From a virus, in IMG/VR virus record IMGVR_UViG_3300027754_000069, positions 18,689 to 82,688 of that record: 64,000 nucleotides of DNA; one strand, 5' to 3'. Position numbers and translations under genes: made by a program. Under the pieces are notes generated by a model. It saw only the letters and a program-made list of their open reading frames with translations. It ran no database searches and was not told where the DNA came from. The first letter of the stretch is position 1. The number at the start of each line of letters is the position of its first letter. This document shows positions 5,162-60,992 of the stretch, one piece after another.

Positions 5162-5243
5162 GCATGAATTACGCCTGCGTAGGTGAGCCCCTCCCCCACT
5201 CCATGGTGTGGAGCGAGAGAGAGGCTTGACTATCTGTAGAGGG

Positions 5244-5629: not shown

Positions 5630-5674
5630 GCCTTTCGGTTAATTCAACCAACCCAGCGCTGATTGAATGACACC

Positions 5675-5703
5675 AGAATACACGACCAGCCCCAGCATGT
5701 CAA
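5675..5703 (-). promoter_or_regulatory. Consensus housekeeping-sigma promoter TTGACA-17-TATTCT
   Basis: Seen directly; same position in B (TTGACA-17-GATACT). Confidence 0.8.
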
Positions 5704-5893
5704 ATTCAGACGGACAGGAGGCGTGTCTTGAGCCTATCGTCATGTCATACATACATGAACACCCATCCACATACACATCGGCACATACACACACGCGCAG
5801 GGACATGCCTGCATGCATACGGATGGATGACAGTTCACGCGGATTGGTTACTAACAGGCGGGCGCCGTGATGCAGGCGCTACGCGCATCTCAA

Positions 5894-5924
5894 GATAGCA
5901 AAGCAAAGCTTTGCATTATTAAGG
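5894..5924 (+). promoter_or_regulatory. Hairpin element H1 (GATA-GCAAAGC-AAA-GCTTTGC-ATTATTAA)
   Basis: Member of the repeated family heading rightward modules. Confidence 0.7.
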
Positions 5925-5965
5925 AGTGACCAGCCAAAATTTGGTTGGCAGATTGGAGAAAAGTT

Positions 5966-6139
5966 ATGAACGGTTATGGACTCTATTGGGGAGACTTCCT
6001 TGCAATTGGGATTCTCTTCAGCGTGATTGGCATCCTACTCGTGGCTCTTGCATGGGACTACGTGGACATCAAGATAGCAGACCGTAGGTCTGCAGATATA
6101 GAGAAGCACTGGGCAACAACGATTCGAGAGGAACGATAA
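5966..6139 (+). CDS. Small membrane protein
   Basis: One TM segment; YWGD motif shared with 46864..46980. Confidence 0.75.
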   Translation: MNGYGLYWGDFLAIGILFSVIGILLVALAWDYVDIKIADRRSADIEKHWATTIREER

Positions 6140-6315
6140 TGGATTACAAAGTAAAACTCAACTGGCAAGAAGACGAGTTCGCATCTCGCGGAACAACCTA
6201 CTTCGTAGAGTTCCTGAAGATGGATGACACTTCTCTAGGAGAAGTGGATGGCAACTCATGGCAAGAAGTATTCACCAAAGCGGTGAATTACCTACAAGAG
6301 ATAGGAGAAATCTAA
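6139..6315 (+). CDS. Hypothetical protein MDYKVKLNWQEDE...EIGEI
   Basis: Read manually; homolog at 47060..47242; TAATG coupling. Confidence 0.85.
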   Translation: MDYKVKLNWQEDEFASRGTTYFVEFLKMDDTSLGEVDGNSWQEVFTKAVNYLQEIGEI

Positions 6316-6674
6316 TGGGAGCACGTATCAATTTCGTACTGAAGGTATACCCGACAGAGCAAGCACACGTCACGCTCTACTCACATTGGGGCGAGACTAC
6401 TTGGCGTTACGATTTAGCAATGGCATTGCTACATGCCAAGCCTCGATGGGATGACCAGAACTACGGAGCACGAATAGTTGTTTCACAACTAATCGGTGAC
6501 AACTGGAACAATGAGACAGGCTACGGCTTGTTCACAAGCGTTGACGGCGAGGACTTAGGGGACACCACTGTAGTGGTGGACTTTACAAATCAAACAGTCA
6601 ATGATACAGGCAACGAACATTCGTTCGGTGCTTTCATCGAATACCAAACGGAAATGGTGGAATATCATGGGTAA
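6315..6674 (+). CDS. Hypothetical protein (MGAR...LYSHWG family)
   Basis: Homolog at 47243..47605; start moved to coupled ATG. Confidence 0.85.
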   Translation: MGARINFVLKVYPTEQAHVTLYSHWGETTWRYDLAMALLHAKPRWDDQNYGARIVVSQLIGDNWNNETGYGLFTSVDGEDLGDTTVVVDFTNQTVNDTGNEHSFGAFIEYQTEMVEYHG

Positions 6675-6939
6675 CGCAACAGCGCAAGACTTAGCAGAGA
6701 ATGTCATAGACATTCGTCAATCAGTGGCGATTCAATTGCGAAGCAATCACTATCCGCCAGTACCTCTCAGCATGGTGGAACCATGTATCGAAGCCATCTA
6801 TGCAGTATCGGATGGTGATACTCATAAGAGTATCCAACTACCAGACGGTGTCGAGTGGCGTGGCTACCCGACAGCCCCTGCATATGCCATCGTCGAGGGG
6901 CATCATCTCGAACCATGGTGTGACTTCGACCATCAATAG
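6667..6939 (+). CDS. Hypothetical protein (NHYPPVP...HHL family)
   Basis: Homolog at 48770..49042. Confidence 0.85.
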   Translation: MGNATAQDLAENVIDIRQSVAIQLRSNHYPPVPLSMVEPCIEAIYAVSDGDTHKSIQLPDGVEWRGYPTAPAYAIVEGHHLEPWCDFDHQ

Positions 6940-6972
6940 ATAGCACAGCAAAGCTGTGCATATATATAAGGG
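6939..6972 (+). promoter_or_regulatory. Hairpin element H2 (GATA-GCACAGC-AAA-GCTGTGC-ATATATATAA)
   Basis: Seen directly; intergenic, upstream of the GP88-like gene. Confidence 0.7.
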
Positions 6973-7001
6973 CTAACCAACCAACCGAAAGGAGCAACAC
7001 A

Positions 7002-7727
7002 ATGGCAGGACTAAAGCGTTCCAATGACCGTAAGGTCACCAACTTACCAACACCAAACGGCAAACGCTCAGCAATCATGAACACGTTCGGCTTACCTAGT
7101 GGTAAGCAGTACTCATGTCCCAACGCCACCAGTATATGCGAGAAGATTTGCTACGCTGGAAAGTTAGAACGTATCTATCCCTCTGTGAGGGATGTGCTAC
7201 TTCATAACTGGAATCTCTTGAAGGATGCAGAGTACGACACTATGGTGTCGCTGATTGATGACATGGTGACGGCATTCGAATACGATTGCAAAGCAAAAGA
7301 TGCAGAACAAATGTTCCGCATCCATTGGGATGGGGATTTCTTCTCCGATACCTATGCCAGAGCATGGCGTGACGTAATCGAAAAGCATACTGATACCCAG
7401 TTCTGGGTATATACCAGAGTTCCATCTGCTGCTCGTTGGTTAGATGGGATAGCAAACTTGTCGCTGTACTTTAGTACAGATGATGAGAACAAAGACAGCG
7501 CTGTCTATCTACGAGAGACAGGACAAAAGATAAAGGTTGCCTATCTGTCTGAGACTTTTGCTGATGCAAAAGAGATAATGCTTAGCATGACTGGCAAGGT
7601 GGGTGCGAAATGTCCAGAGAATCTGGGTTCAATCCCGCTAATCAGTACCGAAGGTAGTGCTTGTGCTACATGCCGTCTATGTATCGACGGTAAATCCGAT
7701 ATCCGATTTGCAATAGCAAAGAAATGA
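7002..7727 (+). CDS. GP88-family (radical-SAM-like Fe-S) protein
   Basis: CPxxxxxCxxxCYA, FRIHWDGDF, FWVYTR, C-terminal CP..CxxCxxC. Confidence 0.75.
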   Translation: MAGLKRSNDRKVTNLPTPNGKRSAIMNTFGLPSGKQYSCPNATSICEKICYAGKLERIYPSVRDVLLHNWNLLKDAEYDTMVSLIDDMVTAFEYDCKAKDAEQMFRIHWDGDFFSDTYARAWRDVIEKHTDTQFWVYTRVPSAARWLDGIANLSLYFSTDDENKDSAVYLRETGQKIKVAYLSETFADAKEIMLSMTGKVGAKCPENLGSIPLISTEGSACATCRLCIDGKSDIRFAIAKK

Positions 7728-7735
7728 GGGCAGAC

Positions 7736-8071
7736 ATGAACACAGTAGAAGATAGTGTGGCTTTACTTAGTAAAGCTGCCGAATCATTAACAACTTATCG
7801 CACATCACTAGAGGTATGGCGTTCCGCCATGACTGACCTAGCAATCTGGCATTCACTAGAAGCCATGCTTGCAGACCAAGAAGAGTACGACATCGCAACC
7901 GTATTCACACGAGATGTACTGATGGCGTGGATTATCCGCGACCATTGGCAACCAGTATCTATCGATGAGGATGGATACGAAGGTATCGACATCGCAGTCA
8001 GAGCCTATCTAATAGATAGCAAACTGGCACTAGACCCACACCACATGGAGGAGGATGAAGATGACGAATGA
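7736..8071 (+). CDS. Acidic hypothetical protein
   Basis: Homolog at 50016..50330 (DLAIW, DHW, YEGID). Confidence 0.8.
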   Translation: MNTVEDSVALLSKAAESLTTYRTSLEVWRSAMTDLAIWHSLEAMLADQEEYDIATVFTRDVLMAWIIRDHWQPVSIDEDGYEGIDIAVRAYLIDSKLALDPHHMEEDEDDE

Positions 8072-8207
8072 CAGCATAAGTTGGGGTGAGTTAGCAGAAC
8101 TAACTCATCAGATACAGGTAGAACGCTTTCAATTCTGCATGTGTGAAGACAATGAAGGTAATGAGAATCCATACGCAGACTGCCCGAAAGGGGAAGGCAA
8201 TGAGTAA
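8061..8207 (+). CDS. 48-aa hypothetical protein
   Basis: Read manually: MTNDSISWGELAELTHQIQVERFQFCMCED...PYADCP; GGAGG SD; fills the gap between neighbours. Confidence 0.65.
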   Translation: MTNDSISWGELAELTHQIQVERFQFCMCEDNEGNENPYADCPKGEGNE

Positions 8208-8382
8208 ACATATCTATGATATGAACGCTGAAGAACTGGCTCAACTTGTGTGCTTCGGATACGAGGGACACCCATGTACCAACACGATGGATGAATATGG
8301 CTGTCGGAATAGCATGAAGGACAACGAACCATTCTGTTCAGAATGCTGTGCCGATACGAATGACGGCGCATGCTGTGGATAA
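8200..8382 (+). CDS. Cys-rich small protein
   Basis: CFGYEGHPCTNTMDEYGCRNSMKDNEPFC identical in 49029..49217. Confidence 0.85.
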   Translation: MSKHIYDMNAEELAQLVCFGYEGHPCTNTMDEYGCRNSMKDNEPFCSECCADTNDGACCG

Positions 8383-8393
8383 CAGGCGTCAAA

Positions 8394-8425
8394 GATAGCA
8401 TAGCAAAGCTATGCATATATATAGG
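8394..8425 (+). promoter_or_regulatory. Hairpin element H3 (GATA-GCATAGC-AAA-GCTATGC-ATATATATA)
   Basis: Seen directly; intergenic. Confidence 0.7.
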
Positions 8426-8459
8426 AGGCAAGACCAAACCCAACCGAAAGGAAACGATA

Positions 8460-8927
8460 ATGACAGCAATAGAACAAGCAGTACAAGAAGCAGTAGGCAT
8501 AGCATCACTCAGCGAAGCAGATAAACTGCGAGTTGACCTTGAAAGCGCAAGCACCACAGTCAACGCACTCCGCGTCGCCGTCAACAATCATCGCAATCAA
8601 GTACGTGATTTATACACAGCACTCAACGACACCATCCAAGATGGTGGATGTGAAGAGACAAGCAACATCACCTTCGGTGAGTTGTCCGAGATACTCAAAG
8701 ATGTATTCGGTAGTGAACTGGTGTTCACTAAAGAGTACGAAGTGCAGGTTCGATACACCATGTATGCAACGTTCAAGATAACAGCAGCATCTGAAGATGA
8801 TGCTCGTTCAATCGCCGAAGAGATTGGTATCAGCACAGACCCAGAGTGGGATATCGATACCGATAACACAGAGCCAGACTCATGGCATATCGATGACACA
8901 CGTATCGACTACATACAGGAGGCATAA
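8460..8927 (+). CDS. Coiled-coil/acidic hypothetical protein
   Basis: Homolog at 50570..51040; CGAAAGGA SD. Confidence 0.85.
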   Translation: MTAIEQAVQEAVGIASLSEADKLRVDLESASTTVNALRVAVNNHRNQVRDLYTALNDTIQDGGCEETSNITFGELSEILKDVFGSELVFTKEYEVQVRYTMYATFKITAASEDDARSIAEEIGISTDPEWDIDTDNTEPDSWHIDDTRIDYIQEA

Positions 8928-12058: not shown

Positions 12059-12227
12059 TGCTACTACCTCCTGCCCATCCTCCACCTTTAAAGTGGATAG
12101 GTGCTGCGACAAACAGCTTAGTTAATGTGACGTTGCAGTCTTCACATTTAGGAAACTCTTCCCCATCTTTGATATTAATCTCTGTAACTTTCTCACAGGT
12201 TACGCATTTGAAATCCCATGTTGCCAT
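12051..12227 (-). CDS. FmdB-like zinc ribbon protein
   Basis: CxxC..CxxC followed by FKGGGW. Confidence 0.85.
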   Translation of the reverse strand: MATWDFKCVTCEKVTEINIKDGEEFPKCEDCNVTLTKLFVAAPIHFKGGGWAGGSSIG

Positions 12228-12865
12228 TAGTATGGTGCTCCCCCTCCAAGTAGTTCTGATATGTCTCGTATCCCTCGTGCTGATATCTGTTCTACTCGCT
12301 GAGGTGAGATGTCCCAAGCTGTTGCTATCTCCGTTAATGGCTGGTCGTGAGCGAAGCGACTGTTAAGTATCCCTTGTGTACGTGGGTCCAGCTTCTTCAT
12401 AGCTCTGTCAACATCAGCCAGCATAGCCAGCAAGTTGTTACCTTCGCTTGCTTGCTTCTTAGCTTTGATGCCATGTACATCTGGGTCTAACACTTGGTTG
12501 GTTAGATGTGCATCTTCGGAACCAAGAACTTTAATTAAACCTTCAATCATTTCAATACGATAGTAGTACTCATCACCAAGCTCATAGCCAAGAGCTCTTG
12601 CCTTTTCTTTGCGAGCGTATCGCTCGCCTGCTCTACGCATGAAAGTAGAGAAAGCTTTGTAACCCATTCGTCTTTCGTTCTCTTCTTCACGCATGAGATA
12701 CTCTTTGACTTTGTCTTTACGTTTCCAAGCGTACTCATTCATAGCTTGCTTGATGTCTGCCTGCTCGGCAAACCTGTGGTATTTCTTTGAAATATTATAT
12801 GAAAGTACAGATGTAATATCGTTTACTTGTTCCCAAATAGAATGGTCGCGGTTCAGCTCAGCCAT
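12227..12865 (-). CDS. Sigma-70-like phage sigma factor
   Basis: C-terminal region-4-like HTH (LTEIATAWDISPQRVEQ) and region-2-like N-terminus. Confidence 0.7.
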   Translation of the reverse strand: MAELNRDHSIWEQVNDITSVLSYNISKKYHRFAEQADIKQAMNEYAWKRKDKVKEYLMREEENERRMGYKAFSTFMRRAGERYARKEKARALGYELGDEYYYRIEMIEGLIKVLGSEDAHLTNQVLDPDVHGIKAKKQASEGNNLLAMLADVDRAMKKLDPRTQGILNSRFAHDQPLTEIATAWDISPQRVEQISARGIRDISELLGGGAPY

Positions 12866-43737: not shown

Positions 43738-45627
43738 TCACAATCTCACAGCTCGCTGTTGTGCAGCGAGGTCATCTAAGTTGATGATGTATCTTGATTC
43801 AATCTCACCACGAGGTGTATATTGATTGTTGATAAAGTTTGGTACGTTAGTCGAAGTTAACAAAGTTTCTCTGGCTACGATCTCACAGAACCATAATGCC
43901 ATCACGGCATCCATCTTGAGTTTCTTGCCTTGTACTCCTGGTTGCCAGGTTACTAATTGTTCTATTAACTTTTTGACGTGTTCATTCTTCGAGCTGTCTG
44001 GTAATTCAATTAAGTTATCATCAGCATGCTTGAAGTTGTTCATGACTCCATCTCGCTTAGTGAGGGAGCCGAACAGTGGAGCCAGAGAGGCAACGCCAAA
44101 CTCTGGATCCTGTTTATTATTTCCTGTGTAGTGAGGTCTATAACTAATACCTCGGGTCGACAGGAAGTTACGAATCTCTTCGTCTTGTGTAAGGAAAAGC
44201 TGAAAAGCATTTGATTCCACAATGACCGTATGCGGTTTATACGCATCGGTCCATTCCCTGATAAGAGAACGAATTGCTGCAGGTGTAGGAGCTGTCATGA
44301 TGTGAACATCTAAGACGTAGCGTTTATGTGACCTGCGGTCAACCGCATAGGCGATAGCAGCGGTATCACCAGACATTGCTGGGTCGATACCTATGACCCT
44401 GTAAAAGTTCTCAGGGTTGTTGGGATGTCCTGCTGCGCCTGCAACCAATGCACCCGATTTTCTCATTCCGTTGACTGCGCCTCTGACGCATGTCGGGTCG
44501 AAGATTGCATTCTCCGCAATATCGAGGTTCTGGTATACCAGCGACCACTTAGATGGTCCTGCCTCATTACGGACCGCCGTTAGACGCGGTCCTGTCCATC
44601 GATCAAACAAACCATTCTCGTCGGGTACGTCAGTATCCGTAAGAGGTTGTTCGGTCTTTTCCCAAAGACATTTCCAGTCTTCAGGCTTGTCTGCATATTC
44701 TAAGACTGCAGGCATGGACAAATATGACCAAGGCAATGTGCCATCGGTGTAATGCTGTGGGTTGCGGAGTTCCTTATATAAGTCAACTGCTGATACTCGT
44801 GTGCCTACAACAAGAAGCTGCCCACCTCCTGGTGGTAGGCGTGAAGCAACTTCTTGTCGAATCCACTCTTGTTGCTTAGCCCACTCTGAAGCATTACTCA
44901 GAGTGACTACGTCGTCAAGAACGATTAAGTCTGCACGGTTTCCGTAAACCTGCCCGCCCATACCGATAGCTTCGACTGAAGGGTCTTTAGCATCGTTATC
45001 GCGGATGTCGCCACCAAGATAGATCTTGGTTGCTGACCACTGGTCTGCAGTAGCTTTGTATCCATCTGCTGGACCAAAAGCTGCCTGAAGGTCAGCGTAC
45101 CTCGGATGCGTCAAGCGTTGCTTGATCGCATACAAAAACTTCTTTGCCTGCTCCTGGGTCTTGGAGATAACCATGACCGAGATGTTAGGATTCTTAACCA
45201 GACGGTAGGTGACGTAGTTAATTGTGATCGTCATTGTCTTGGCGTGGTTAGGGGGTACGTTTACAAGAAGGCGGGATAAGCCCGCCGACCCCTTTTCGTA
45301 GACCATGCTTTCATGTAACCAAGAAGGATCATTGCCTTCTAGCATGTCTACCACATTCATCATGTGAGTGGGTACTTTAGTACCAAGGTAATTCTCAGAG
45401 AACTCTGCAAACCCAGATAAGCCAGACCGAGCGGAATCAGCGAGGTCTGCTGTTCTACCACGAGCATTATCTACATAAGCTGAGAAGCCCTCGGCTTCTC
45501 GGCGTTGGGTATCATACCAAGAGCGAGATCGTCCGATGACCTTTAGGGCGTCGGCGATCGTCCTGCCTTGTCTTACCAGGTCAATGAGTTCTTTACGAGC
45601 TTCTTCTGGTGATAGATTTCTTTCCAA
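43738..45627 (-). CDS. terL: Terminase large subunit with N-terminal HTH-like extension
   Basis: Same motifs as A; TTG start at 45627 gives the same length as A. Confidence 0.93.
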   Translation of the reverse strand: MERNLSPEEARKELIDLVRQGRTIADALKVIGRSRSWYDTQRREAEGFSAYVDNARGRTADLADSARSGLSGFAEFSENYLGTKVPTHMMNVVDMLEGNDPSWLHESMVYEKGSAGLSRLLVNVPPNHAKTMTITINYVTYRLVKNPNISVMVISKTQEQAKKFLYAIKQRLTHPRYADLQAAFGPADGYKATADQWSATKIYLGGDIRDNDAKDPSVEAIGMGGQVYGNRADLIVLDDVVTLSNASEWAKQQEWIRQEVASRLPPGGGQLLVVGTRVSAVDLYKELRNPQHYTDGTLPWSYLSMPAVLEYADKPEDWKCLWEKTEQPLTDTDVPDENGLFDRWTGPRLTAVRNEAGPSKWSLVYQNLDIAENAIFDPTCVRGAVNGMRKSGALVAGAAGHPNNPENFYRVIGIDPAMSGDTAAIAYAVDRRSHKRYVLDVHIMTAPTPAAIRSLIREWTDAYKPHTVIVESNAFQLFLTQDEEIRNFLSTRGISYRPHYTGNNKQDPEFGVASLAPLFGSLTKRDGVMNNFKHADDNLIELPDSSKNEHVKKLIEQLVTWQPGVQGKKLKMDAVMALWFCEIVARETLLTSTNVPNFINNQYTPRGEIESRYIINLDDLAAQQRAVRL

Positions 45628-45740
45628 TTGGACTCCAGTGTCTGTAGTGGTACAGAGGGGTCTGGGCAGAAGTATCCCCACTCTTGCATATATAACCATT
45701 AGGCTGGCATTAAGCCAGCCACAGAAGGCTCAATAAGTAT

Positions 45741-45787
45741 TTCGCCTTATACTTATATAGGGGTCTAGAGCGTCGGCGTGTTTCAAG
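45741..45787 (-). promoter_or_regulatory. Putative late/terminase promoter
   Basis: Near-identical to 4944-4992. Confidence 0.55.
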
Positions 45788-45868
45788 GGCTTTTGGTAAT
45801 TATTTTTATTTATATATATAAGTGCTGGTCAGAGCTGGTTTTCTGGTGAATATTATTTTGTGGATAGT

Positions 45869-45889
45869 GGGGGGAGGGGAGGGGGGTGG
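45869..45889 (+). other. G-tract in putative genome-end region
   Basis: G6-A-G4-A-G6-T-G2. Confidence 0.6.
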
Positions 45890-45982
45890 TGCTAAACATC
45901 AGGGGGGTCGTCAAGGGCGCGACACAAAAAAAGACCCACGCATCTGTGCGTGAGCCTAGGAAAAACGTGTGCGCGGGCAGGG

Positions 45983-46016
45983 AAAAACCCCCCGCGCCTG
46001 TGCTGACGCGAGGGGC
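45983..46016 (-). terminator. Terminator for the leftward early gene
   Basis: A-run plus CCCC.CGCG..CGCG.GGGG stem. Confidence 0.55.
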
Positions 46017-46029
46017 TTGCCTAACTATC

Positions 46030-46302
46030 TTATAGGGAAATCCTCTTCATTACTACGCGGAAGTTATCGCTTACGATACGCAACTCCCGAGCATTACGCA
46101 CCTCTGCTATGTCATACACGATACCTACGCGACCCTTGCCTATGTGAACAAGGTCTCCTAATTGTGCATACCCGAGCGATACCAACTCGAAATCGGGGAT
46201 GTGATTCAGGCTTGGAACTCCGTACTCATTGCGTACCTCAAGCACCTCTGCCTTGAGGTCTGTGAGTAGGTCGTCGTGTGTCCACGCTGTGATTGTGTTC
46301 AT
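46030..46302 (-). CDS. Immediate-early small protein, KOW/SH3-like
   Basis: Homolog of 5357..5629. Confidence 0.8.
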   Translation of the reverse strand: MNTITAWTHDDLLTDLKAEVLEVRNEYGVPSLNHIPDFELVSLGYAQLGDLVHIGKGRVGIVYDIAEVRNARELRIVSDNFRVVMKRISL

Positions 46303-46354
46303 TGCTGTGTGCCTTTCGCTATTTACGTTGGAAGACCACCTCCCAACGACAAAC

Positions 46355-46383
46355 AGTATCTCACACCTCGAGCCGAATGTCAA
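46355..46383 (-). promoter_or_regulatory. Housekeeping-sigma promoter TTGACA-17-GATACT
   Basis: Seen directly; same position as in A. Confidence 0.75.
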
Positions 46384-46545
46384 ACACTGAGCGTAAATCC
46401 TCGGTGTGTCGGCTCGTTATGTGTGTCCTGTGATGTGCCGTATGCGCTGGTGTATGCGCCGTGCGTCATAACGCATAAGCATAGCGGGCGATACGTATTG
46501 ACTGCTAACAGCTCGCACGTATGATCCGCACACCTGTCTTTTCTT

Positions 46546-46579
46546 GATAACAAATCAAAGATTTGTTTGATAAAGGGGG
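46546..46579 (+). promoter_or_regulatory. Hairpin element H4 (GATA-ACAAATC-AAA-GATTTGT-TTGATAAA)
   Basis: Seen directly. Confidence 0.7.
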
Positions 46580-46618
46580 TCGAATCAAATTGGTTTGGCA
46601 TTGACGAAAGGAACACAG

Positions 46619-46864
46619 ATGAGAACAGTTGAAACTAAGGCACTAGTCGGCGTCGTAAAGAACGGCGTTGTTCACGTGTCGAAGCCAAATGACAAGCGCA
46701 TCTTCGCAAAGGTACGCATCACCACTAACACCGCTAAATCTTCGAAGAAGATTGAAGCAATCCTCGCCTCATTCAAGGCATACCCGAACTTTACCACAGT
46801 TCTGGCTGAAATCCAAAAGGTTGAGCCAAAGGCTTACCTCACACTGAAGGGAGGTCAAGCCTAA
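46619..46864 (+). CDS. Basic hypothetical protein (B only)
   Basis: CGAAAGGA SD; coupled to the next gene. Confidence 0.75.
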   Translation: MRTVETKALVGVVKNGVVHVSKPNDKRIFAKVRITTNTAKSSKKIEAILASFKAYPNFTTVLAEIQKVEPKAYLTLKGGQA

Positions 46865-46980
46865 TGTTTTATTGGGGAGACTACGTAGCAATGGCAATCG
46901 CACTATTCACCAGTGGATTCACACTCGGTATCTACGTCGCTCGACGTGCCGTCAAGCAGTGGCTCGCACGTCATTCATAG
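46864..46980 (+). CDS. 38-aa membrane protein
   Basis: Read manually: MFYWGDYVAMAIALF... Confidence 0.7.
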   Translation: MFYWGDYVAMAIALFTSGFTLGIYVARRAVKQWLARHS

Positions 46981-47012
46981 ATAACACATCGAAGATGTGT
47001 ATAGAAAGGGGG
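46980..47012 (+). promoter_or_regulatory. Hairpin element H5 (GATA-ACACATC-GAA-GATGTGT-ATAGAAA)
   Basis: Seen directly. Confidence 0.7.
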
Positions 47013-47059
47013 GACGGCAAATCGCTGTCCCCTCTCCACTTATCGAAAGGAGCAACACA

Positions 47060-47242
47060 ATGGATTACAGACTCAAACTCAACTGGCAGGAAGACGAACT
47101 CGCCCCTCGCGGGACTCGTTACTACGTCGAGATTGAAAAACTTGACGACTGGAATACCACGATTGTGGATGTCAATGGCACGTCGTGGCATCAGGCAATG
47201 ACCGAAGCAATGGACAAACTAACCGAGATAGGAGAAATCTAA
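47060..47242 (+). CDS. Hypothetical protein
   Basis: Homolog of 6139..6315. Confidence 0.85.
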   Translation: MDYRLKLNWQEDELAPRGTRYYVEIEKLDDWNTTIVDVNGTSWHQAMTEAMDKLTEIGEI

Positions 47243-47605
47243 ATGGGAGCAAGAATCAACTTCGTATTCAAGGCATACGAAAAAGAAATATCACACGTCA
47301 CACTCTACTCACACTGGGGCGAGAGTAACTGGCGAAGTGACTTAGCAGAAGCACTGGCTCACGCTAAGCCTCGCTGGGATGATGCAAGTTATGGAATCCG
47401 AATAGTTGTTTCACAACTAATCGGTGAGGACTGGGGTAATCACACAGGTTACGGCTTGTTCACAAGCACCGAAGATGAAGACTTAGGTGACACCACCGTA
47501 ATGGTGGACTTTACAAATCAAACAGTCAATGATACAGGCAACGAACATTCGTTCGGTTCTTTCGTCGAGTATCACGAAGAGGTAAAGGAGTTTCATAATG
47601 CCTAA
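47243..47605 (+). CDS. Hypothetical protein (LYSHWG family)
   Basis: Homolog of 6315..6674. Confidence 0.85.
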   Translation: MGARINFVFKAYEKEISHVTLYSHWGESNWRSDLAEALAHAKPRWDDASYGIRIVVSQLIGEDWGNHTGYGLFTSTEDEDLGDTTVMVDFTNQTVNDTGNEHSFGSFVEYHEEVKEFHNA

Positions 47606-48236
47606 CTGGGTGTATAACTCCCTCGTAATCGAGGGTGATGCAGACGTACTTACACGGATCGCGCAACAACTAGCAACACCACACGAAACACAACACCTTG
47701 ACTGGAAAACCAACGAGGTCAAGACTGAAATGGTTGAACAACCATTCTCATACTGGAACATCATCAAGCCGACCAACCTTGATGAGTATTACGACAAGCC
47801 CGACACAAAGCAAGACCATCCCGACCACTGGTATTCGTGGAATACCAGCAACTGGGGCGTGAAATGGAATGCATCAAGTGCTGAACGGCACGATACCGAA
47901 GACGGCTCATTGTGCTACACGTTCGAATCCCCTTGGGGTATTCCAAATGAAGCACTGCTCACCTTATCCAAGCAATACCCAACCGTCACGCTTGAGCTCG
48001 AGTTCGAGGAAGAGACTGGCTGGGGTGGAACTATTGTCTACGACAATGGCAATGAGGAAACAACCGAAGAGTACGACAACAAGTGCCGAGACTGTAGCGC
48101 ACTGAACACGCTGGATTACTGCGACGATTGCGGTAATGAACTGTGTTCAAAATGCAACAACATAAGCGAGGCAGATAAGGATGCACTCAAAGAGTGCGAG
48201 ACACATAAACATCTAGCACAGGAGGTAACAGCGTGA
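47598..48236 (+). CDS. DUF1281/YubB ferredoxin-like protein with C-terminal Zn finger (B only)
   Basis: MPNW.YN.L.I.G, WY.WN..NWG.KW, F.SPW..P, YP...L.FEE. Confidence 0.8.
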   Translation: MPNWVYNSLVIEGDADVLTRIAQQLATPHETQHLDWKTNEVKTEMVEQPFSYWNIIKPTNLDEYYDKPDTKQDHPDHWYSWNTSNWGVKWNASSAERHDTEDGSLCYTFESPWGIPNEALLTLSKQYPTVTLELEFEEETGWGGTIVYDNGNEETTEEYDNKCRDCSALNTLDYCDDCGNELCSKCNNISEADKDALKECETHKHLAQEVTA

Positions 48237-48427
48237 CCAAATACATAGCCAATGAAAACGGAGACTGGTGGGAATACGTCGAGGACTCTGTCCTCTTCGT
48301 CATTGACGACAGTGAAGGACACATAAGCAAGGCAATGCAAGAGGAAGACGCGTCGCCCGACGACGACAAGTTCGAGAAGTTCATCTGGCGATACGGCAAA
48401 GCCGTAACAATCAAGGAGGTAATCTAA
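48233..48427 (+). CDS. Hypothetical protein (B only)
   Basis: GTGA coupling; GGAGG SD. Confidence 0.75.
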   Translation: MTKYIANENGDWWEYVEDSVLFVIDDSEGHISKAMQEEDASPDDDKFEKFIWRYGKAVTIKEVI

Positions 48428-48597
48428 TGATGGGCTACAAGTATGCAGACATACAGAAGTTCGGCACTGCTCTGAACAGAGCAGAGTTCTACCTACCACC
48501 AAGTGATACAGAAACAAGGGAGGGTCTCACTCAGGTGTGGGATTTCTTCGAAGGACTACTAGCCGAAGGCTATGTAGAAGGAGAGGAGACAGCGTGA
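48427..48597 (+). CDS. 56-aa hypothetical protein (B only)
   Basis: Read manually: MMGYKYADIQKF...DFFEGLLAEGYV. Confidence 0.7.
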   Translation: MMGYKYADIQKFGTALNRAEFYLPPSDTETREGLTQVWDFFEGLLAEGYVEGEETA

Positions 48598-48770
48598 CCA
48601 AGTACATAGACATAGACGAACTCAAGGCTATCTATAAAGATAATCGTGAGGGAAATGTATCTGACTCAGCATTTGCTGAGGCAGTAGAAGAAATCAACGG
48701 AAGAGTGGACAACTTCATCGACGCCATACTTGAAGACATACTTCAAGAACTATACGAAGGAGCAAACTAA
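48594..48770 (+). CDS. Acidic hypothetical protein (B only)
   Basis: GTGA coupling. Confidence 0.7.
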   Translation: MTKYIDIDELKAIYKDNREGNVSDSAFAEAVEEINGRVDNFIDAILEDILQELYEGAN

Positions 48771-49042
48771 TGGGACGCAATACAGCGCAAGACCTAGCGG
48801 AGAATGTCATTGACATTCGCCAGTCAATAGCAATACAACTAACAAGCAATCACTATCCACCTGTGCCACTGAGTATGGTCGAGCCTTGTATTGAGGCTAT
48901 CTATGCGGTGTCAGAGGGACTCACTCATAAGCAAATCCAACTGCCGAAAGGTGTGTACTGGCGGGAGTATCCAACCGCTCCCGCTCACGTCATTGTCGAG
49001 AGTCATCATCTCCAACCTTGGTGTGATTATGACAACGACTAA
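48770..49042 (+). CDS. Hypothetical protein (NHYPPVP family)
   Basis: Homolog of 6667..6939. Confidence 0.85.
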   Translation: MGRNTAQDLAENVIDIRQSIAIQLTSNHYPPVPLSMVEPCIEAIYAVSEGLTHKQIQLPKGVYWREYPTAPAHVIVESHHLQPWCDYDND

Positions 49043-49217
49043 GCATCTATACAGTATGACGGCAGATGAACTCGCACGGATCACGTGCTTCGGCTACGAG
49101 GGACACCCTTGTACCAACACAATGGATGAGTATGGCTGTCGCAACAGTATGAAAGACAACGAACCATTCTGCGCTGAGTGTTGTGCAGATACTAACGAGG
49201 GTATGTGCTGCGGGTAG
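49029..49217 (+). CDS. Cys-rich small protein
   Basis: Homolog of 8200..8382 at a different position. Confidence 0.85.
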   Translation: MTTTKHLYSMTADELARITCFGYEGHPCTNTMDEYGCRNSMKDNEPFCAECCADTNEGMCCG

Positions 49218-49230
49218 CACGTGCATTCTT

Positions 49231-49263
49231 TATAGCATAGAGAATCTATGCTCTTGAATAAGC
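49231..49263 (+). promoter_or_regulatory. Hairpin element H6 (TATA-GCATAGA-GAA-TCTATGC-TCTTGAATAA)
   Basis: Positional equivalent of H2. Confidence 0.65.
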
Positions 49264-49285
49264 CGACCAAACCGAAAGGAGAAAG

Positions 49286-50008
49286 ATGCTATCGCTAATC
49301 AGAAGCAATGACCGCAAGGTTACCAACCTAGTCTCGCCAAGTGGCAAGACATCTGCAATCGCTAACACCTTTGGCTTACCAGCAGGCAAGGCATACTCTT
49401 GTCCAGATGCAACCAATATCTGCGAGAAGGTCTGTTATGCAGGCAAGCTCGAGCGTGTATACAAGGGAGTGAGGGAAGTTCTCCTTCACAACTGGCAACT
49501 ACTGAAGGACGCTGACGTCAACCAAATGGTTGACTTGCTTGACGATATGATGCTTGATTTCATCAAGGATTGTGAGAGACGGAATGCCCCGAAGTTATTC
49601 CGCATCCACTGGGACGGCGACTTCTTCAATCAAACCTATGAGTATGCGTGGCAGAAAATAGTAATGATGCACCCAGACATACAGTTCTGGTGCTATACAC
49701 GTGTCAAGTCTGCTGCTTATTCCCTATCGGGGCTTGACAATCTCTCGCTGTACTACAGCACAGATGATGAGAACAAACACATCGGCGAACAAGTTCGCAA
49801 CGAAACAGATACGAAACTAGCGTACCTATCCACCACATTCGCAGATGCAGAGGATGAAATGGTACGTATCACTGGCAAGGTAGGTGCGAAATGCCCTGCA
49901 CTAACCAAGCAAATCCCACTCATCTCAACGAGTGGTTCAGCCTGCGTAACTTGCGGGCTCTGTGTCAACGGCAAAGCCGACATCCGATTCAGCACAACCA
50001 AGAAATGA
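49286..50008 (+). CDS. GP88-family protein
   Basis: Homolog of 7002..7727. Confidence 0.75.
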   Translation: MLSLIRSNDRKVTNLVSPSGKTSAIANTFGLPAGKAYSCPDATNICEKVCYAGKLERVYKGVREVLLHNWQLLKDADVNQMVDLLDDMMLDFIKDCERRNAPKLFRIHWDGDFFNQTYEYAWQKIVMMHPDIQFWCYTRVKSAAYSLSGLDNLSLYYSTDDENKHIGEQVRNETDTKLAYLSTTFADAEDEMVRITGKVGAKCPALTKQIPLISTSGSACVTCGLCVNGKADIRFSTTKK

Positions 50009-50015
50009 GGAACAA

Positions 50016-50330
50016 ATGGAAGCATCATTCATGATCGCACAGGTAGAGACAACCATGTCTAACTACACCAACCAACATCACCGCTTAGGTATGCGAGACC
50101 TTGCCATATGGCAAAGCCTCGGCTCATACTATGCAGACCCAGAAGATTACGACATCGTGCTTACCTCAACACGAGAGGAAGCGTTCGACCGTATGGTGGC
50201 AGACCACTGGCATGTACGAGTAAGCGATGCATTCTTCGGGCTTGACTACGAAGGTATCGACGAAGAGGTACTTGATTATCTGAAGGGTAACAAGTTAGTA
50301 GCAAGCACAGACGAAGAGGAGGAAGAGTAA
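50016..50330 (+). CDS. Acidic hypothetical protein
   Basis: Homolog of 7736..8071. Confidence 0.8.
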   Translation: MEASFMIAQVETTMSNYTNQHHRLGMRDLAIWQSLGSYYADPEDYDIVLTSTREEAFDRMVADHWHVRVSDAFFGLDYEGIDEEVLDYLKGNKLVASTDEEEEE

Positions 50331-51040
50331 TGCCTATCATGTGTGAAGAATGTAAATGTTCGAACTGGATTTGCTCCGACTGTGGAGAATCCAATCATAA
50401 TGATTGTGGTTGCCCATGCTGTGGCTGTAAATGCCAGACAAAAGAAGATGAGAAATGGTGCGACGATTGTGGAAAGAACGTGCCATACACCAGCGAAGGA
50501 TGTGCGTGTCAAGATAGCACAGCTTTAGCTGTGCATATAGATAACCAACCAACCGAAAGGAGCAACACCATGGAAACAGAAGCACCAGTAGTAACGCCAG
50601 ACCAGCAACAGATTGTGTATCTCGAGGAGCAGAAGGTTGCACTAGAGAAGCGCATTGAAGCACTAACGATTGACCTATCCACACAACGCAGTATCGTGGA
50701 TGAACACCGCCGTAAGGTAAGCAGACTATTCACCAAGGTGAATGACTACATTGAAGAGAATGACTGTGATGAAGACAGCGAGATTGTTCTTCATGAACTA
50801 GATGACATCCTCTCAGGTATCTTCAGCAACCGACTCGTATTCGAGAAGGTGTATGAGGTACAGATTACCTACACACTGGACGCTACGTTCGAGATCCGTG
50901 CAAAGGATGAGGATGCAGCACGTGAGATTGCCGAAGAGATTGGCATCAGCACTGACCCAGTGTTCGACCATGAGGAAGACCCAACCGAATGCGTGATAGA
51001 CCAGTCACGTGTCGGATACCTACAACGAAAGGTGAACTAA
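50330..51040 (+). CDS. Cys-rich ORF in frame with coiled-coil gene (internal start at 50570)
   Basis: Part from 50570 is homologous to 8460..8927 and has its own GAAAGGAG SD. Confidence 0.7.
   Translation: MPIMCEECKCSNWICSDCGESNHNDCGCPCCGCKCQTKEDEKWCDDCGKNVPYTSEGCACQDSTALAVHIDNQPTERSNTMETEAPVVTPDQQQIVYLEEQKVALEKRIEALTIDLSTQRSIVDEHRRKVSRLFTKVNDYIEENDCDEDSEIVLHELDDILSGIFSNRLVFEKVYEVQITYTLDATFEIRAKDEDAAREIAEEIGISTDPVFDHEEDPTECVIDQSRVGYLQRKVN
50513..50544 (+). promoter_or_regulatory. Hairpin element H7 (GATA-GCACAGC-TTTA-GCTGTGC-ATATAGATAA)
   Basis: Positional equivalent of H3. Confidence 0.7.
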
Positions 51041-51297
51041 TGAGTATAAACAGAGGAGATGTCTGCGCCAACGGAGCCGTTGTCGTAGATTGCAAGCGAG
51101 CTAACGATGGTGTAACCATTGTGCTCTGCTTGTGGGTAAGAGATACACAAACAGGTGAGCAATTCACCCGCACTGCTGATCCATACGTAACGTGGACAGC
51201 ACGTAGAGATGAGGGAACAGGCGAGATTGTATGCTCGACTGGTCACTATATGGACAGCCTGTCCGATGCAGTTGTTGATTTCAACAGCCGTACCTGA
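51040..51297 (+). CDS. Hypothetical protein
   Basis: Homolog of 8930..9193. Confidence 0.85.
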   Translation: MSINRGDVCANGAVVVDCKRANDGVTIVLCLWVRDTQTGEQFTRTADPYVTWTARRDEGTGEIVCSTGHYMDSLSDAVVDFNSRT

Positions 51298-51335
51298 TAC
51301 ACTCACACCAACAACCCAACACGAAAGGAAGTACC

Positions 51336-52316
51336 ATGTCAAACCTAACAATCAAGTCCCGCCGTAATGCATACAGCATTATCGGTGAAGAAGTAACAGC
51401 AACATCAGCACGAGACGCAGCCACTCAGGCTGGTCTCGACTGGCGCGTATCACTAGCCGACGTCCAAGCGTTGGCTGTATCAAACACAGGTGTTAGCCAA
51501 CTCGAAGTGCCTAACACTTTCGCTACTGTCCGTACCAACGAGGACAACACACAGTCAGTGCTTGGCACTGTCGGTGGACGATACAAAGTATTCCAGAATG
51601 CTGAGATGTTCTCAGGTCTAGATGCTCTGGTCGATTCAGGAGATGCACGATATGCATATGCTGGTGAAGTCAAAGGCGGAGCACAGGTATACATGGTGCT
51701 CGAGCTACCTAAAGGTGTGAAGATTGGTAACGATGAGCACAAGGCTTATCTAGTAGCACGAACTTCACACGATGGTTCAACTGCACTGCAGATTGCACCG
51801 AGTGTGACACGTTTACGCTGTACCAATCAGATCGCTGGCATCTTCTCTAAGTCAGCGACCTACACACTCAAGCATACAACCAATGCTGAGTTCAAGATTG
51901 AGGACATCCGCAAGATTATCCCAGTCACATACACTGGTATCGAGTTCTACGAAACCGTAGGCAACAAGCTTCTCCAAGAGAAGCTAACCGATATAGAGGT
52001 AGACAACATCTTCAAGAAGATGTGGTCACTACCATCCTTCGTTGAGCAATCGCCATATGCACTGCTTTCAACAGGGCAGAAGCGACAGTACAACTCAGCG
52101 ATATCTGCACGAGATGCAGCCAAAGGTATCTACAAAGGTGCAACTGGCACACAAGAAGAACTGTATGGCACAGCGTTCGGTGTGTTCCAATCAGTGGTTG
52201 AGTACGCTGACCACTACAGTCACAAGACAGAAGCAACTCGAGCCGAGCGTGTCATCAACGGTTCGGCTGACAGAATCAAGAGCAAGGCTCTTACCCTACT
52301 AACGAAGGGAATCTAA
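51336..52316 (+). CDS. DUF932 family protein
   Basis: Homolog of 9235..10209. Confidence 0.85.
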   Translation: MSNLTIKSRRNAYSIIGEEVTATSARDAATQAGLDWRVSLADVQALAVSNTGVSQLEVPNTFATVRTNEDNTQSVLGTVGGRYKVFQNAEMFSGLDALVDSGDARYAYAGEVKGGAQVYMVLELPKGVKIGNDEHKAYLVARTSHDGSTALQIAPSVTRLRCTNQIAGIFSKSATYTLKHTTNAEFKIEDIRKIIPVTYTGIEFYETVGNKLLQEKLTDIEVDNIFKKMWSLPSFVEQSPYALLSTGQKRQYNSAISARDAAKGIYKGATGTQEELYGTAFGVFQSVVEYADHYSHKTEATRAERVINGSADRIKSKALTLLTKGI

Positions 52317-52523
52317 ATGGATAAGGAAGACCTATACATCCAGCCTCGCATCTCAACAAGGCTGGCACAGTACATACAAAAGGCACTCGATTACCTACAC
52401 ATCTATGCACAAAAGATGGATGACCCAAGCGTGATCGAGCCTGAGCTACACAAAGAAGCAGATGATGCCATGATTGACATCATCTTAGACGCACCGCTAC
52501 CAGAGGAGGAATCTAATGGGTAA
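52317..52523 (+). CDS. Hypothetical protein
   Basis: Homolog of 10212. Confidence 0.8.
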   Translation: MDKEDLYIQPRISTRLAQYIQKALDYLHIYAQKMDDPSVIEPELHKEADDAMIDIILDAPLPEEESNG

Positions 52524-52743
52524 GTTAATCAACAAAGATACACTTGGTGTCCGTGTTGGGGGTATGAAAATTACCCCCATCGCTGGCTGGTCATGGTACT
52601 GTGGATACCATGACTCATACGGAATCGGAGATGACCGCGACGAAATCGTGTTCATGTTCGGTGCTCATATGAAATACAACGAGGTCGACGGCGATGTATG
52701 TGAACCGTATTACCGAGAATGGAAAGTAAAGGAGGAAGCATGA
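52516..52743 (+). CDS. Hypothetical protein
   Basis: Homolog of 10435. Confidence 0.85.
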   Translation: MGKLINKDTLGVRVGGMKITPIAGWSWYCGYHDSYGIGDDRDEIVFMFGAHMKYNEVDGDVCEPYYREWKVKEEA

Positions 52744-52871
52744 TACATCTAGTTAGTGTTGTTCTTATCTGTGCATATTGTAACTCAGAGATAGAACGAC
52801 GTACTGAATTAGAAGCACGTGAGGCACTGGCTGAACACCAGAACTACGTGCAATGTATGAAGAACTACTGA
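52740..52871 (+). CDS. 43-aa Zn-finger-like protein
   Basis: Homolog of 10659..10790. Confidence 0.8.
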   Translation: MIHLVSVVLICAYCNSEIERRTELEAREALAEHQNYVQCMKNY

Positions 52872-53194
52872 TGGGCAAGCCACGTCCGACAGAGATACGT
52901 CTAGTAGCCAAGCTACTAGATCCAGACGCTGAGAACTCCGAAGATGCTGCAGCATTAGCGATTGAAATCATTGAGGCACTAGATAACTCTAGGCTTAAAC
53001 GAGAATCGTTTATTGTTGTAGCAAAGTTGGCGGACTGGGTTCCCTTGCAGGCATGGGGGGAATTCAGTACCCGCTTACAAGCAGAGAAGTTCTTCCCGCA
53101 TCTATCCGCACCAGGTCCAGATACTGGTGGCAAGGGTGCGATAGCAAGGCTAGAAAATCCAGATGATTTACTCAAACGAATAGGAGCACAGTAA
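52871..53194 (+). CDS. Hypothetical protein
   Basis: Homolog of 10790. Confidence 0.85.
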   Translation: MGKPRPTEIRLVAKLLDPDAENSEDAAALAIEIIEALDNSRLKRESFIVVAKLADWVPLQAWGEFSTRLQAEKFFPHLSAPGPDTGGKGAIARLENPDDLLKRIGAQ

Positions 53195-53361
53195 TGTTCT
53201 ACAACGGATTCACTTTGCTCATGCAGATACTAGCAGGCATGAGTATGTACTACGTTGGTCGACACTTTGGTTACCACCAAGGTGAGCAAGAGATGTATCA
53301 GAGATGTCGTAGTGCTGATGCAGTACGAAGAGAATTCTTTTCCGACATCAGTCGGAACTAG
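53194..53361 (+). CDS. Small membrane protein
   Basis: Read manually; homolog of 11119..11262. Confidence 0.75.
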   Translation: MFYNGFTLLMQILAGMSMYYVGRHFGYHQGEQEMYQRCRSADAVRREFFSDISRN

Positions 53362-54109
53362 GTTCAGAATCAAGGGCGGGGGCTTGTGCCTCCGCCTTTT
53401 TTTCTGTCTCGTCCGCGACTAGGTGCGTGATCCAAAATAATTTATAGTAGTCATAGTCATAAGAAAATCTCTTCATGTGTTTAACTGTTGCACCTGTATG
53501 TGCGTGAAGTGGGACACCAGCTTGCTTCATTAGCATGAAGAACTGGATGTCTTCCGATACATACTGAGCATCAGTACCACCACTAGAATGCTCAACAAAG
53601 AATGGCTTGTCATGACCATGAAATTCTTTCATCTTGTCAGCCACTGATCTATGCATCAGGAAGAATCCATAGCCAGCATAATCACATTTAACTATGGCAT
53701 TAGGTTCCATTGGATGTAGGTATGACATCTGATGGATGTCATCTGGATGCGCTATGAATAGGCATGGGTACGGAGACATCAACGCCTGTTCATTCTCCTT
53801 GGAAATAAAGTATGTACCACTAACAGCTGGCATTGTCTTAGCGTCAGCTATATCCCAAATTTTTTTCAGCGCATCGTTGGTTACATGGATGTCGCTATCT
53901 ACCCAGAGAATCCAATCAAAGTCTGATGCATACCAAGTATCAAATGCCGTCTGTCGTTGACGCCCGATCTGATTACCTTGCACACGTTGAGCACCTCTGA
54001 TTGGCAAACCACTGGTCAGAACTGTGTAGACCAAACCCTCTGTGAACTTACCGTCTACCATCCCATTGTCACACCATGTAAGCATCATCTTTTCATTAGC
54101 TTTGTGCAT
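53348..54109 (-). CDS. Glycosyltransferase (GT2-like)
   Basis: Homolog of 11279. Confidence 0.8.
   Translation of the reverse strand: MHKANEKMMLTWCDNGMVDGKFTEGLVYTVLTSGLPIRGAQRVQGNQIGRQRQTAFDTWYASDFDWILWVDSDIHVTNDALKKIWDIADAKTMPAVSGTYFISKENEQALMSPYPCLFIAHPDDIHQMSYLHPMEPNAIVKCDYAGYGFFLMHRSVADKMKEFHGHDKPFFVEHSSGGTDAQYVSEDIQFFMLMKQAGVPLHAHTGATVKHMKRFSYDYDYYKLFWITHLVADETEKKAEAQAPALDSEPSSD
53372..53404 (+). terminator. Early-region terminator
   Basis: GGCGGGGGC..GCCTCCGCC plus T-run. Confidence 0.75.
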
Positions 54110-54275
54110 GATTACCTCCCCATCCTGTCCCTGTAAATTTAATTGGTGGTGCATTATATATTCTAGTTAGTGTGCTACCGCATACAGGACAGTCATACTC
54201 TTGTTCATCCTCTGTCATGCCACGTTCGATGATGACAACTTGTCCGTCACCTGGACATTCATATTCATAGTTCAT
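54096..54275 (-). CDS. FmdB-like zinc ribbon protein
   Basis: Read manually: MNYEYECPGD...CPVCG...FTGTGWGG. Confidence 0.8.
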   Translation of the reverse strand: MNYEYECPGDGQVVIIERGMTEDEQEYDCPVCGSTLTRIYNAPPIKFTGTGWGGNHAQS

Positions 54276-54913: not shown

Positions 54914-55193
54914 ATTGCCTAACCAAGTACGTGTGTGCAGCAAGTAACAGATCGGGATCATCACCCAATAAACCTAATGCTCTGTTGTGATTAGAGCAGA
55001 GTAAGCCACGCACCTTGCCAGTACGATGGTCGTGATCTATATCCAACGCACGAACTGATGGACTAGCACCACAGATGTAACAGCCACCACCTTGTGACTC
55101 AAGCATCTCTTCGTATTGTTCTACGGTAATACCATAAGAACGAATCCGTGAACCACGTTGCTCATTGTAAGTTTTATTTCGATTGCGTGGCAT
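54906..55193 (-). CDS. Endonuclease VII family protein
   Basis: Same motifs as A. Confidence 0.9.
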   Translation of the reverse strand: MPRNRNKTYNEQRGSRIRSYGITVEQYEEMLESQGGGCYICGASPSVRALDIDHDHRTGKVRGLLCSNHNRALGLLGDDPDLLLAAHTYLVRQYV

Positions 55194-60963: not shown

Positions 60964-60992
60964 ATAGGCTGCTTTAGCAGCCTTATGAAAAG
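60963..60992 (+). promoter_or_regulatory. Hairpin element H8 (GATA-GGCTGC-TTTA-GCAGCC-TTATGAAAA)
   Basis: Same layout as the family; precedes the only rightward gene outside the early region. Confidence 0.55.

Follow-up and report, generated by a model that had tools for sequence, protein, structure and literature searches.

What do the short hairpins that stand in front of small rightward genes in an uncultured phage do, and what would read them? The question arises from the last 64 kb of an 82,688-bp contig (IMG/VR record IMGVR_UViG_3300027754_000069, positions 18,689-82,688; this whole stretch of 64,000 bp is called the window below), in which an initial annotation had pointed out eight hairpin elements of common layout and had proposed that they are DNA hairpin promoters. 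The observation itself was confirmed, and our analysis supports a description of the elements as orientation-specific, gene-proximal signals, made of sequence plus structure, that head rightward cassettes. As for the promoter proposal, the position, orientation and portability of the elements fit a promoter cassette, but a reading of the N4 type is unlikely, as the strand is wrong and no polymerase gene was found.

The window consists of two collinear, diverged phage genomes of about 41 kb each, referred to as A (up to position 21859) and B (21860-64000), which share 65-90% nucleotide identity. In each genome, a long leftward array surrounds a single rightward module of small genes, located at 5.9-11.1 kb in A and at 46.6-53.2 kb in B. 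Seven of the eight stems listed initially were indeed perfect 7-bp Watson-Crick stems with GATA on the 5' side (TATA at 49231 in one case) and an AT-rich tract on the 3' side. The remaining one, at 60966-60983, was excluded from the family: it has neither GATA nor a CA/TG stem, the stem of its A homologue at 19011 is unrelated, and the covariance model of the family (R1) gave no match to it at E ≤ 1. A further copy at 6077-6093 had been overlooked. The family thus has eight members, four per genome, which are listed here together with a leader hairpin and the excluded hairpin:

5886-5968, plus strand: cassette A1, head of the A rightward module; GATA at 5894-5897, stem-loop 5898-5914 (GCAAAGC AAA GCTTTGC), AT tract and leader, ATG at 5966; 43.4 bits with model R1.
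6065-6141, plus strand: cassette A1b; GATA at 6073-6076, stem-loop 6077-6093 (GCAGACC GTA GGTCTGC) in the context caaGATA GCAGACC gta GGTCTGC agatataga, inside the open reading frame (ORF) 5945-6139; next ATG at 6139; 35.4 bits with the covariance model.
6931-7004, plus strand: cassette A2; stop codon TAG of the upstream gene within TAGATA, stem-loop 6943-6959 (GCACAGC AAA GCTGTGC), ATATATATAAGGG, CCAACC leader, ATG at 7002 (GP88 homologue).
8386-8462, plus strand: cassette A3; stem-loop 8398-8414 (GCATAGC AAA GCTATGC), ATG at 8460.
46538-46621, plus strand: cassette B1, head of the B rightward module; TTGATA, stem-loop 46550-46566 (ACAAATC AAA GATTTGT), TTGATAAAGGGGG, ATG at 46619.
46972-47062, plus strand: cassette B2; TAGATA, which also holds the upstream stop codon, stem-loop 46984-47000 (ACACATC GAA GATGTGT), ATG at 47060.
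47009-47034, plus strand: RNA-type leader hairpin of B2, beginning at the G run.
49223-49288, plus strand: cassette B3; TTTATA (TATA at 49231), stem-loop 49235-49251 (GCATAGA GAA TCTATGC), ATG at 49286 (GP88, PF17338).
50505-50572, plus strand: cassette B4; stem-loop 50517-50534 with a 4-nt loop (GCACAGC TTTA GCTGTGC), ATG at 50570.
60966-60983, no strand assigned: hairpin outside the family, conserved in position and with a covarying stem, inside the leftward replication module; A counterpart at about 19011.

In the common layout, a (T/A)(T/A)GATA box (TTGATA, AAGATA or TAGATA) precedes the 7-bp stem RCANANC, which encloses a loop RAA or TTTA; next come an AT tract devoid of C and a G run, and then the leader with the ribosome site. 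All eight copies are located on the plus strand, 35-60 nt before rightward start codons and within the two rightward modules; none was found in the 50 kb of leftward genes. The palindrome always measures 17 or 18 bp, the stem is weak (-5 to -8 kcal/mol as DNA), and between 6 and 10 nt separate it from the G run. Similarity among the cassettes extends from about -25 to about +39 around the stem, and the unit of about 85 bp recurs before unrelated genes. The homology between A3 and B3 stops at the last stem base, and that between A2 and B4 spans GATA to ATG while the flanking genes differ. Many other high-scoring segment pairs end near the elements; these ends merely reflect the similarity of paralogous cassettes, and wider breakpoint statistics are confounded.

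Two copies (A1b and B4) lie inside ORFs, and in two others (A2 and B2) the upstream stop codon is placed 4 nt from the stem. A Cys-rich small ORF in B (50330-51040) has no stop before B4 and continues in frame through the hairpin, the leader and the ribosome site into the next gene; its A homologue ends at a stop codon 16 nt ahead of cassette A3. In both modules, 240 nt of non-coding DNA without a conserved upstream promoter precede the first copy. These stretches (5640-5890 and 46310-46545), which reach from a divergent 90-aa gene to the first cassette, are rich in alternating purine-pyrimidine runs (CACACACGCGCA, TGCATGCATAC, GTGTATGCGC) and contain GCGCATGCGC-like palindromes that recur in relatives though the sequence is not conserved. 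They could represent Z-DNA-prone DNA, an origin or a regulator array.

Chance does not account for the family. By our own arithmetic, the combination of ATA, RCA and a perfect 7-bp stem with a loop of 3-4 nt is expected about 0.008 times on both strands of 64 kb, and about 0.08 times after allowing for a tenfold hairpin excess of the genome, whereas eight were observed. With the GP88 protein as query, 572 related IMG/VR stretches were retrieved, among which only the close relatives contain the cassette. The covariance model gave no match in the distant relative OX376641, in T7 or in twelve unrelated GP88-bearing contigs. In 29 close IMG/VR relatives, by far the commonest plus-strand 4-mer 5' of perfect hairpins was GATA (84 occurrences versus 25 for the runner-up). 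No Rfam family matched at its gathering score anywhere in the window, and no prior description of these elements in freshwater actinophages was found in the literature.

The alignment comprised 50 distinct copies from the 29 relatives, chosen for perfect pairing; scans agnostic to pairing weigh more. All 350 stem cells of these copies are Watson-Crick pairs without a single G-T, in line with what had been noted for the stems of the window. Five of the seven stem pairs change on both sides, stem position 4 shows all four pair types, and the covariation score of 0.607 compares with 0.14 in shuffles, none of 500 reaching the observed value. The first pairing-agnostic scan yielded 54 perfect copies and none with six of seven pairs, the rest (at most five pairs) being noise. 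Extended to the whole of IMG/VR, such a scan returned 72 perfect and 19 imperfect copies; four of the latter were inspected and lay in unrelated sequence without the family flanks, and the others had no AT-rich 3' flank.

Certain bases are (nearly) invariant, namely the ATA before the stem, the stem bases C2, A3 and A5 with their partners, and the absence of C from the tract of about nine bases after the stem, where UU is frequent just behind the last pair. Triloops prevail (43 of 50), AAA being present in 19 copies, TTTA in 7 and the arrangement C-GAA-G in 23, and the last loop base is A in all 50. The head-of-module element occurs with six different stems, always compensated, across eight relatives with near-identical flanks. 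Since several different stems (four) coexist in one genome, the free stem positions are apparently not read as sequence but have to pair. These observations support selection on pairing at positions whose identity is free.

Perfect pairing without G-T had also been stressed in the initial annotation. It is not special to these elements, as such pairing is a property of the entire genome. Counted over the whole 82,688-bp contig as perfect 7-bp stems with loops of 3-5 nt, 144 hairpins were present, compared to about 16 expected from dinucleotide shuffles, about 18 from third-order Markov copies, and 22 at most. The rightward modules contained 28 and 21 perfect hairpins where 1.9 were expected (an 11-15-fold excess), and the large late ORFs contained 25 versus about 4 after shuffling of codon order (about 6-fold). 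The excess was highest at loops of 3-5 nt, disappeared beyond about 12 nt and favoured 5'-C...G-3' closing pairs. Among one-mismatch hairpins, no genome-wide surplus of G-T over A-C on the sense strand, the signature of RNA-level function, was detected. Relatives from independent metagenome assemblies (L003-L030, L036) showed a 10-30-fold excess, unrelated GP88-bearing contigs a 3-8-fold excess, and T7 none. Because the excess is genome-wide, being perfect and free of G-T does not by itself designate a promoter.

Most of these generic hairpins were not kept between A and B (7 of 47), their arms diverging like the flanks. Among near-identical relatives, arms were slightly more conserved than shifted controls (0.136 versus 0.174). 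A specific template-switch signature did not emerge: clusters of at least three arm differences were equally common at controls shifted by 45 nt (0.139 against 0.119). Template switching and selection are both candidates for the cause of the excess. Correction of quasi-palindromes by template switching of the Ripley type, by which imperfect repeats are made perfect, has been described, and the excess of 7-bp arms in non-coding DNA of E. coli is about 1.3-1.4-fold (Lavi et al. 2018; PMC5941160). A similar process could make or keep perfect short inverted repeats here and deliver compensating changes in one step; in the present genomes, however, the excess is 5-15-fold and includes coding DNA. 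The excess is thus far above bacterial reports and offers a natural system to study how perfect inverted repeats originate and persist in coding DNA. One coding site in GP88 (7170-7200) is a quasi-palindrome hot spot with lineage-specific perfect hairpins: A has ATCCCTC tgt GAGGGAT, relatives have TGAAGGA agttc TCCTTCA or TGAAGCA agtat TGCTTCA at the homologous sites, and B has a near-palindrome only.

The explanation that we prefer, with a probability of roughly 0.5, is that the element is the central part of a portable expression cassette about 85 bp long, which would start transcription of the rightward, probably early, genes and would most likely be read by the host RNA polymerase core together with a phage product. 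The preferred spacer length of sigma-70-type promoters is 17-18 bp. The 17-18-bp palindrome would take the place of such a spacer, between a -35-like (T/A)(T/A)GATA box and the C-free AT-rich tract as a -10-like element. We infer that the RNA starts at, or just before, the G run behind the AT tract. This placement is suggested by the leader hairpin 8 nt downstream, which includes the G run and covaries through G-T pairs, so that the G run would lie within the transcript; for the B2 leader (47009-47034) the G-T pairs had already been recognised, and they covary across relatives. The coexistence of invariant bases with free bases that must pair further suggests recognition of the palindrome in the DNA, in part through its folded structure. 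A redirected host core appears more likely than a phage polymerase, as the AT tract lacks the TAnnnT of the one host-type promoter of the phage. The same cassettes serve as junction points between shuffled gene modules.

Several observations weigh against this reading. Whatever register is chosen, the AT tract does not offer a canonical -10 (A at position 2, T at position 6), none of the eight elements was called in a sigma-70 consensus scan, and the stem-to-G-run distance is variable (6-10 nt). A -10 at the junction was considered: with the palindrome looped out, GATA and the following AT or TT would join to GATAAT or GATATT in most copies, an arrangement that fails for the B3 type. In four lake RNA runs, only short contigs over 45500-53500 were obtained, too sparse to inform on starts, ends or strand. 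The sigma factor gene of the phage lies far down the leftward array, which makes its timing uncertain; OX376641 has a sigma gene and no hairpin family, although a single genome cannot decide the matter. Since the loop rich in purines belongs to the sense strand, an RNA-level role on read-through transcripts is conceivable. In addition, short 7-bp stems may simply be intolerant of G-U, and given the genome-wide excess of perfect Watson-Crick hairpins, part of the perfection may be mutational.

A more demanding version of the cassette explanation holds that host RNA polymerase with a phage factor (the phage sigma or the Tudor/SH3-like 90-aa protein) reads promoters whose spacer must fold as a non-template C-RAA-G mini-hairpin, and that the hairpin excess belongs to the same biology. 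The excess would then result from selection that favours foldable DNA, or from a lineage-specific process of replication or repair that makes hairpins and supplies one-step compensatory changes. We regard this combination as doubtful, the shape-read mechanism being plausible but unproven. A precedent for folding in a spacer is reported in a review of N4: a short hairpin introduced between the boxes of a sigma-70 promoter was extruded in vivo, and promoter activity was switched by supercoiling (PMC4496689). It illustrates how the spacer of the cassette could act.

The initial annotation had left the reader unnamed and had overlooked a sigma-70-family gene in both genomes, which is a plausible reader of the cassettes. 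Beside it, the 90-aa gene adjoining the first cassette provides a second candidate for the redirecting factor. The corresponding features are:

54275-54964, minus strand: diverged sigma-70-family factor of phage B, containing regions 2 and 4; candidate for conferring specificity on the cassettes.
12227-12865, minus strand: sigma-70-family factor of phage A, counterpart of the B gene and likewise diverged, with both regions.
46033-46383, minus strand: divergent 90-aa gene of B (46302-46033) with its promoter TTGACA-17-GATACT with TG (46383-46355), followed by two intrinsic terminators (e.g. 45957-45932).
5629-5360, minus strand: A copy of the 90-aa gene; promoter at 5703-5675.

A single host-type promoter, TTGACA-17-TAnnnT, is conserved between the two genomes; it drives this 90-aa gene, the product of which is a candidate immediate-early factor. 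The 90-aa protein was modelled as a helix and a small beta-barrel (predicted local distance difference test score, pLDDT, 84). The best Foldseek match of the model was the RNA polymerase-binding Tudor-like C-terminal domain of UvrD, at an E value of only 0.14, so that a UvrD-like polymerase-binding fold is a lead only. The statement that no RNA polymerase gene can be recognised was borne out, as no polymerase family of Pfam, PHROG or NCBIfam matched in the large ORFs. A virion protein of 1651 aa had no family and no match in PDB sequences, Pfam or NCBIfam, and its neighbours by protein language model were unnamed or LPD-type polyvalent proteins. It contains a T7 motif-B-like string R-x3-K-x8-YG at residue 1432 without a matching motif C downstream, and an AlphaFold model of its residues 951-1651 had a pLDDT of 48, too low to judge the fold. 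A 635-aa protein (61471-63378) was rejected as a polymerase; it has no family, is Gly/Thr-rich and is probably structural.

Doubtful, but the likeliest of the alternatives, is that the hairpin works in RNA, on polycistronic early transcripts read from the head of the module. It would then serve for attenuation or insulation, for processing or for the binding of a protein (similar to nut/boxB or to the terminators of promoter-early stem-loop (PeSL) cassettes) and would yield or protect monocistronic mRNAs starting at the G-run leader hairpin. Such a role is favoured by the location of the conserved 5' GATA and of the purine-rich loop on the sense strand, by the UU that often follows the stem and by the termination of upstream transcription by PeSL stem-loops. 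B also has a sigma-70-like match 25 nt upstream of B1 (46498-46525). This match is the single one of its kind there and is not conserved in relatives, so the earlier remark that no TTGACA-type -35 drives these genes was justified. As the head-of-module copies keep their pairing without a conserved upstream promoter, the hairpin is presumably not merely a terminator for upstream genes. None of the eight elements was called as an intrinsic terminator on the plus strand, and the family stems lack the T runs that follow the GC-rich stems of the real terminators of the phage; weak stems and missing T runs suggest poor terminators. An RNA element is also difficult to reconcile with the lack of G-U in 350 pairs when the adjacent leader hairpin does contain G-U, with the two copies within translated ORFs and the two abutting stop codons, and with the lack of an Rfam match. 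From the pairing pattern, the element hairpin probably acts as DNA rather than RNA.

Less likely still is a double-stranded operator, in which the palindrome would be the site of a dimeric phage regulator within the promoter spacer, its symmetry being kept by hairpin-perfecting mutation (template switching) and not by folding. The placement would be classical for an operator, half-sites RCA.A / T.TGY are conserved, and both the genome-wide excess of perfect inverted repeats and the published model of imperfect-to-perfect correction (PMC5941160) are in agreement with it. However, because only 7 of 47 generic hairpins survive from A to B, correction alone cannot keep 54 or more family copies perfect without any form one step away. 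The coexistence of four stems per genome, whose free positions are unread yet always paired, argues against a plain dimer operator. The asymmetric loop, with A as last base in 50 of 50 copies, points in the same direction, and a repressor of the helix-turn-helix type was not found.

We consider it very unlikely that the elements are signals for recombination or mobility, whether a structure-specific enzyme cuts or joins the hairpin together with the tetranucleotide on its 5' side (REP/IS200-type) or the element is a pure linker for cassette shuffling. The elements call to mind repetitive extragenic palindromic (REP) elements, which combine a conserved tetranucleotide with a hairpin; the A-B homology breaks off at the edges of elements, and endonuclease VII and RusA are encoded by the phage. 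Still, no gene for an HUH or tyrosine transposase was found, many of the segment-pair ends at the elements reflect paralogous cassettes only, and a function in expression is indicated by the strict co-orientation with genes and by the constant association with a leader and ribosome site.

N4 provides the known case of promoters that are read as hairpins. Its early promoters P1-P3 are read by the virion RNA polymerase, a protein of 3500 aa that is injected and needs gyrase and single-stranded DNA-binding protein, and the hairpin with the G-R-A loop belongs to the template strand, its distance from +1 being constant (PMC4496689). Both systems have a short stem (5-7 bp in N4, 7 bp here) and a 3-nt purine loop, with some stem bases conserved and others only pairing; in N4 the hairpin forms in DNA, and its purine loop contains a sheared pair. 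In contrast, the purine loop in our elements is on the non-template strand, spacing is variable, no polymerase gene was found, and four copies per genome are distributed among genes. Recognition of the extruded hairpin by an injected phage polymerase is accordingly the least probable explanation, for in spite of the 7-bp stem, the triloop, C-GAA-G in 23 of 50 copies, the N4-like mixture of conserved and merely paired stem bases and a 1651-aa virion protein without assigned function, a G-R-A loop on the template strand would here imply leftward, antisense transcription, 19 of 50 loops are AAA without the required G, the distance from hairpin to G run varies, no polymerase family was detected in any large ORF, and the genome has 41 kb and not the approximately 70 kb of N4-like phages.

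Returning to the preferred promoter cassette, its architecture is a variant of a type already described and not a new kind. PeSL cassettes are known from the T4-type myoviruses RB49/phi1, T4/PST and KVP40/nt-1 (PMC2839356; PMC4122927); in most cases their stem-loop is placed between the -35 and -10 boxes, and the cassette ends with a ribosome site (PMC2839356). Like these cassettes of about 100 bp, the present elements are repeated and intergenic, stand before small early genes, have Shine-Dalgarno sequence and start codon at their 3' end, and bound shuffled gene modules. The 17-18-bp palindrome lies between TTGATA-like and AT-rich boxes, both being putative promoter elements. The differences are considerable. 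PeSL promoters are strong consensus sigma-70 promoters, whereas the boxes described here are non-canonical (GATA; no TAnnnT). The G/C-tract stem-loops of PeSL cassettes are proven terminators, while our stems are strictly Watson-Crick, lack a T run and form a 7-bp mini-hairpin with constrained RAA/TTTA loop and invariant stem bases. Nor is there a relation in host lineage or in the type of phage (41-kb podovirus-like, actinophage-related). On this reading, PeSL-like plug-in promoter cassettes exist far outside the T4-type phages. If folding were needed by a cellular-type polymerase, promoter recognition through extruded hairpins would extend beyond the single-subunit N4 enzyme, and the cassette would be a compact, supercoiling-sensitive switch. 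Under the ordinary reading, too, it is a clean and easily searched marker of expression units in abundant uncultured freshwater phages.

Both genomes look podovirus-like. Their terminase is 42-46% identical to those of Streptomyces podophages and of 'Caudovirales sp. ct2KA10', and the DNA runs that contain the stretch mostly carry freshwater metagenome labels. Genes for virion and packaging comprise the large terminase, portal, major head protein, tail fibre and several virion proteins with transglycosylase-like segments; those for replication and nucleases comprise a split primase, a DnaB-like helicase, a Cas4-like nuclease, RusA and endonuclease VII. No DNA or RNA polymerase gene was recognised by any library in either genome. 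The two junction resolvases (endonuclease VII-like and RusA-like; 54906-55193 and 57417-57770, minus strand) are worth mentioning in a genome with so many potential cruciforms and no recognisable DNA polymerase.

Upstream of the terminase gene (45700-45800, minus strand), a block that is near-invariant in relatives reads TTGAAAC-N20-CTATATAAGTATAAGG and is followed on its 3' side by a covarying hairpin GGC(T/A)GGC TTAAT GCC(A/T)GCC, with an ATG 12 nt further. It is likely a late promoter with its leader, and the motif TATAAGG is common to this block and cassette A2. The nearby divergent intergenic region (45860-45900) contains a G-rich tract GTGGGGGGAGGGGAGGGGGGTGG, a potential G-quadruplex; a similar tract, as its C-rich complement, is present in phage A at about 5190-5205. 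In unrelated larger freshwater phages among the distant GP88-bearing contigs (e.g. L032, L037 and L045), a different repeated motif, GGCGTGTCGA(C)TTGAC, precedes genes and in some copies overlaps a perfect hairpin (e.g. CGATTTG acaga CAAATCG), possibly representing another promoter family.

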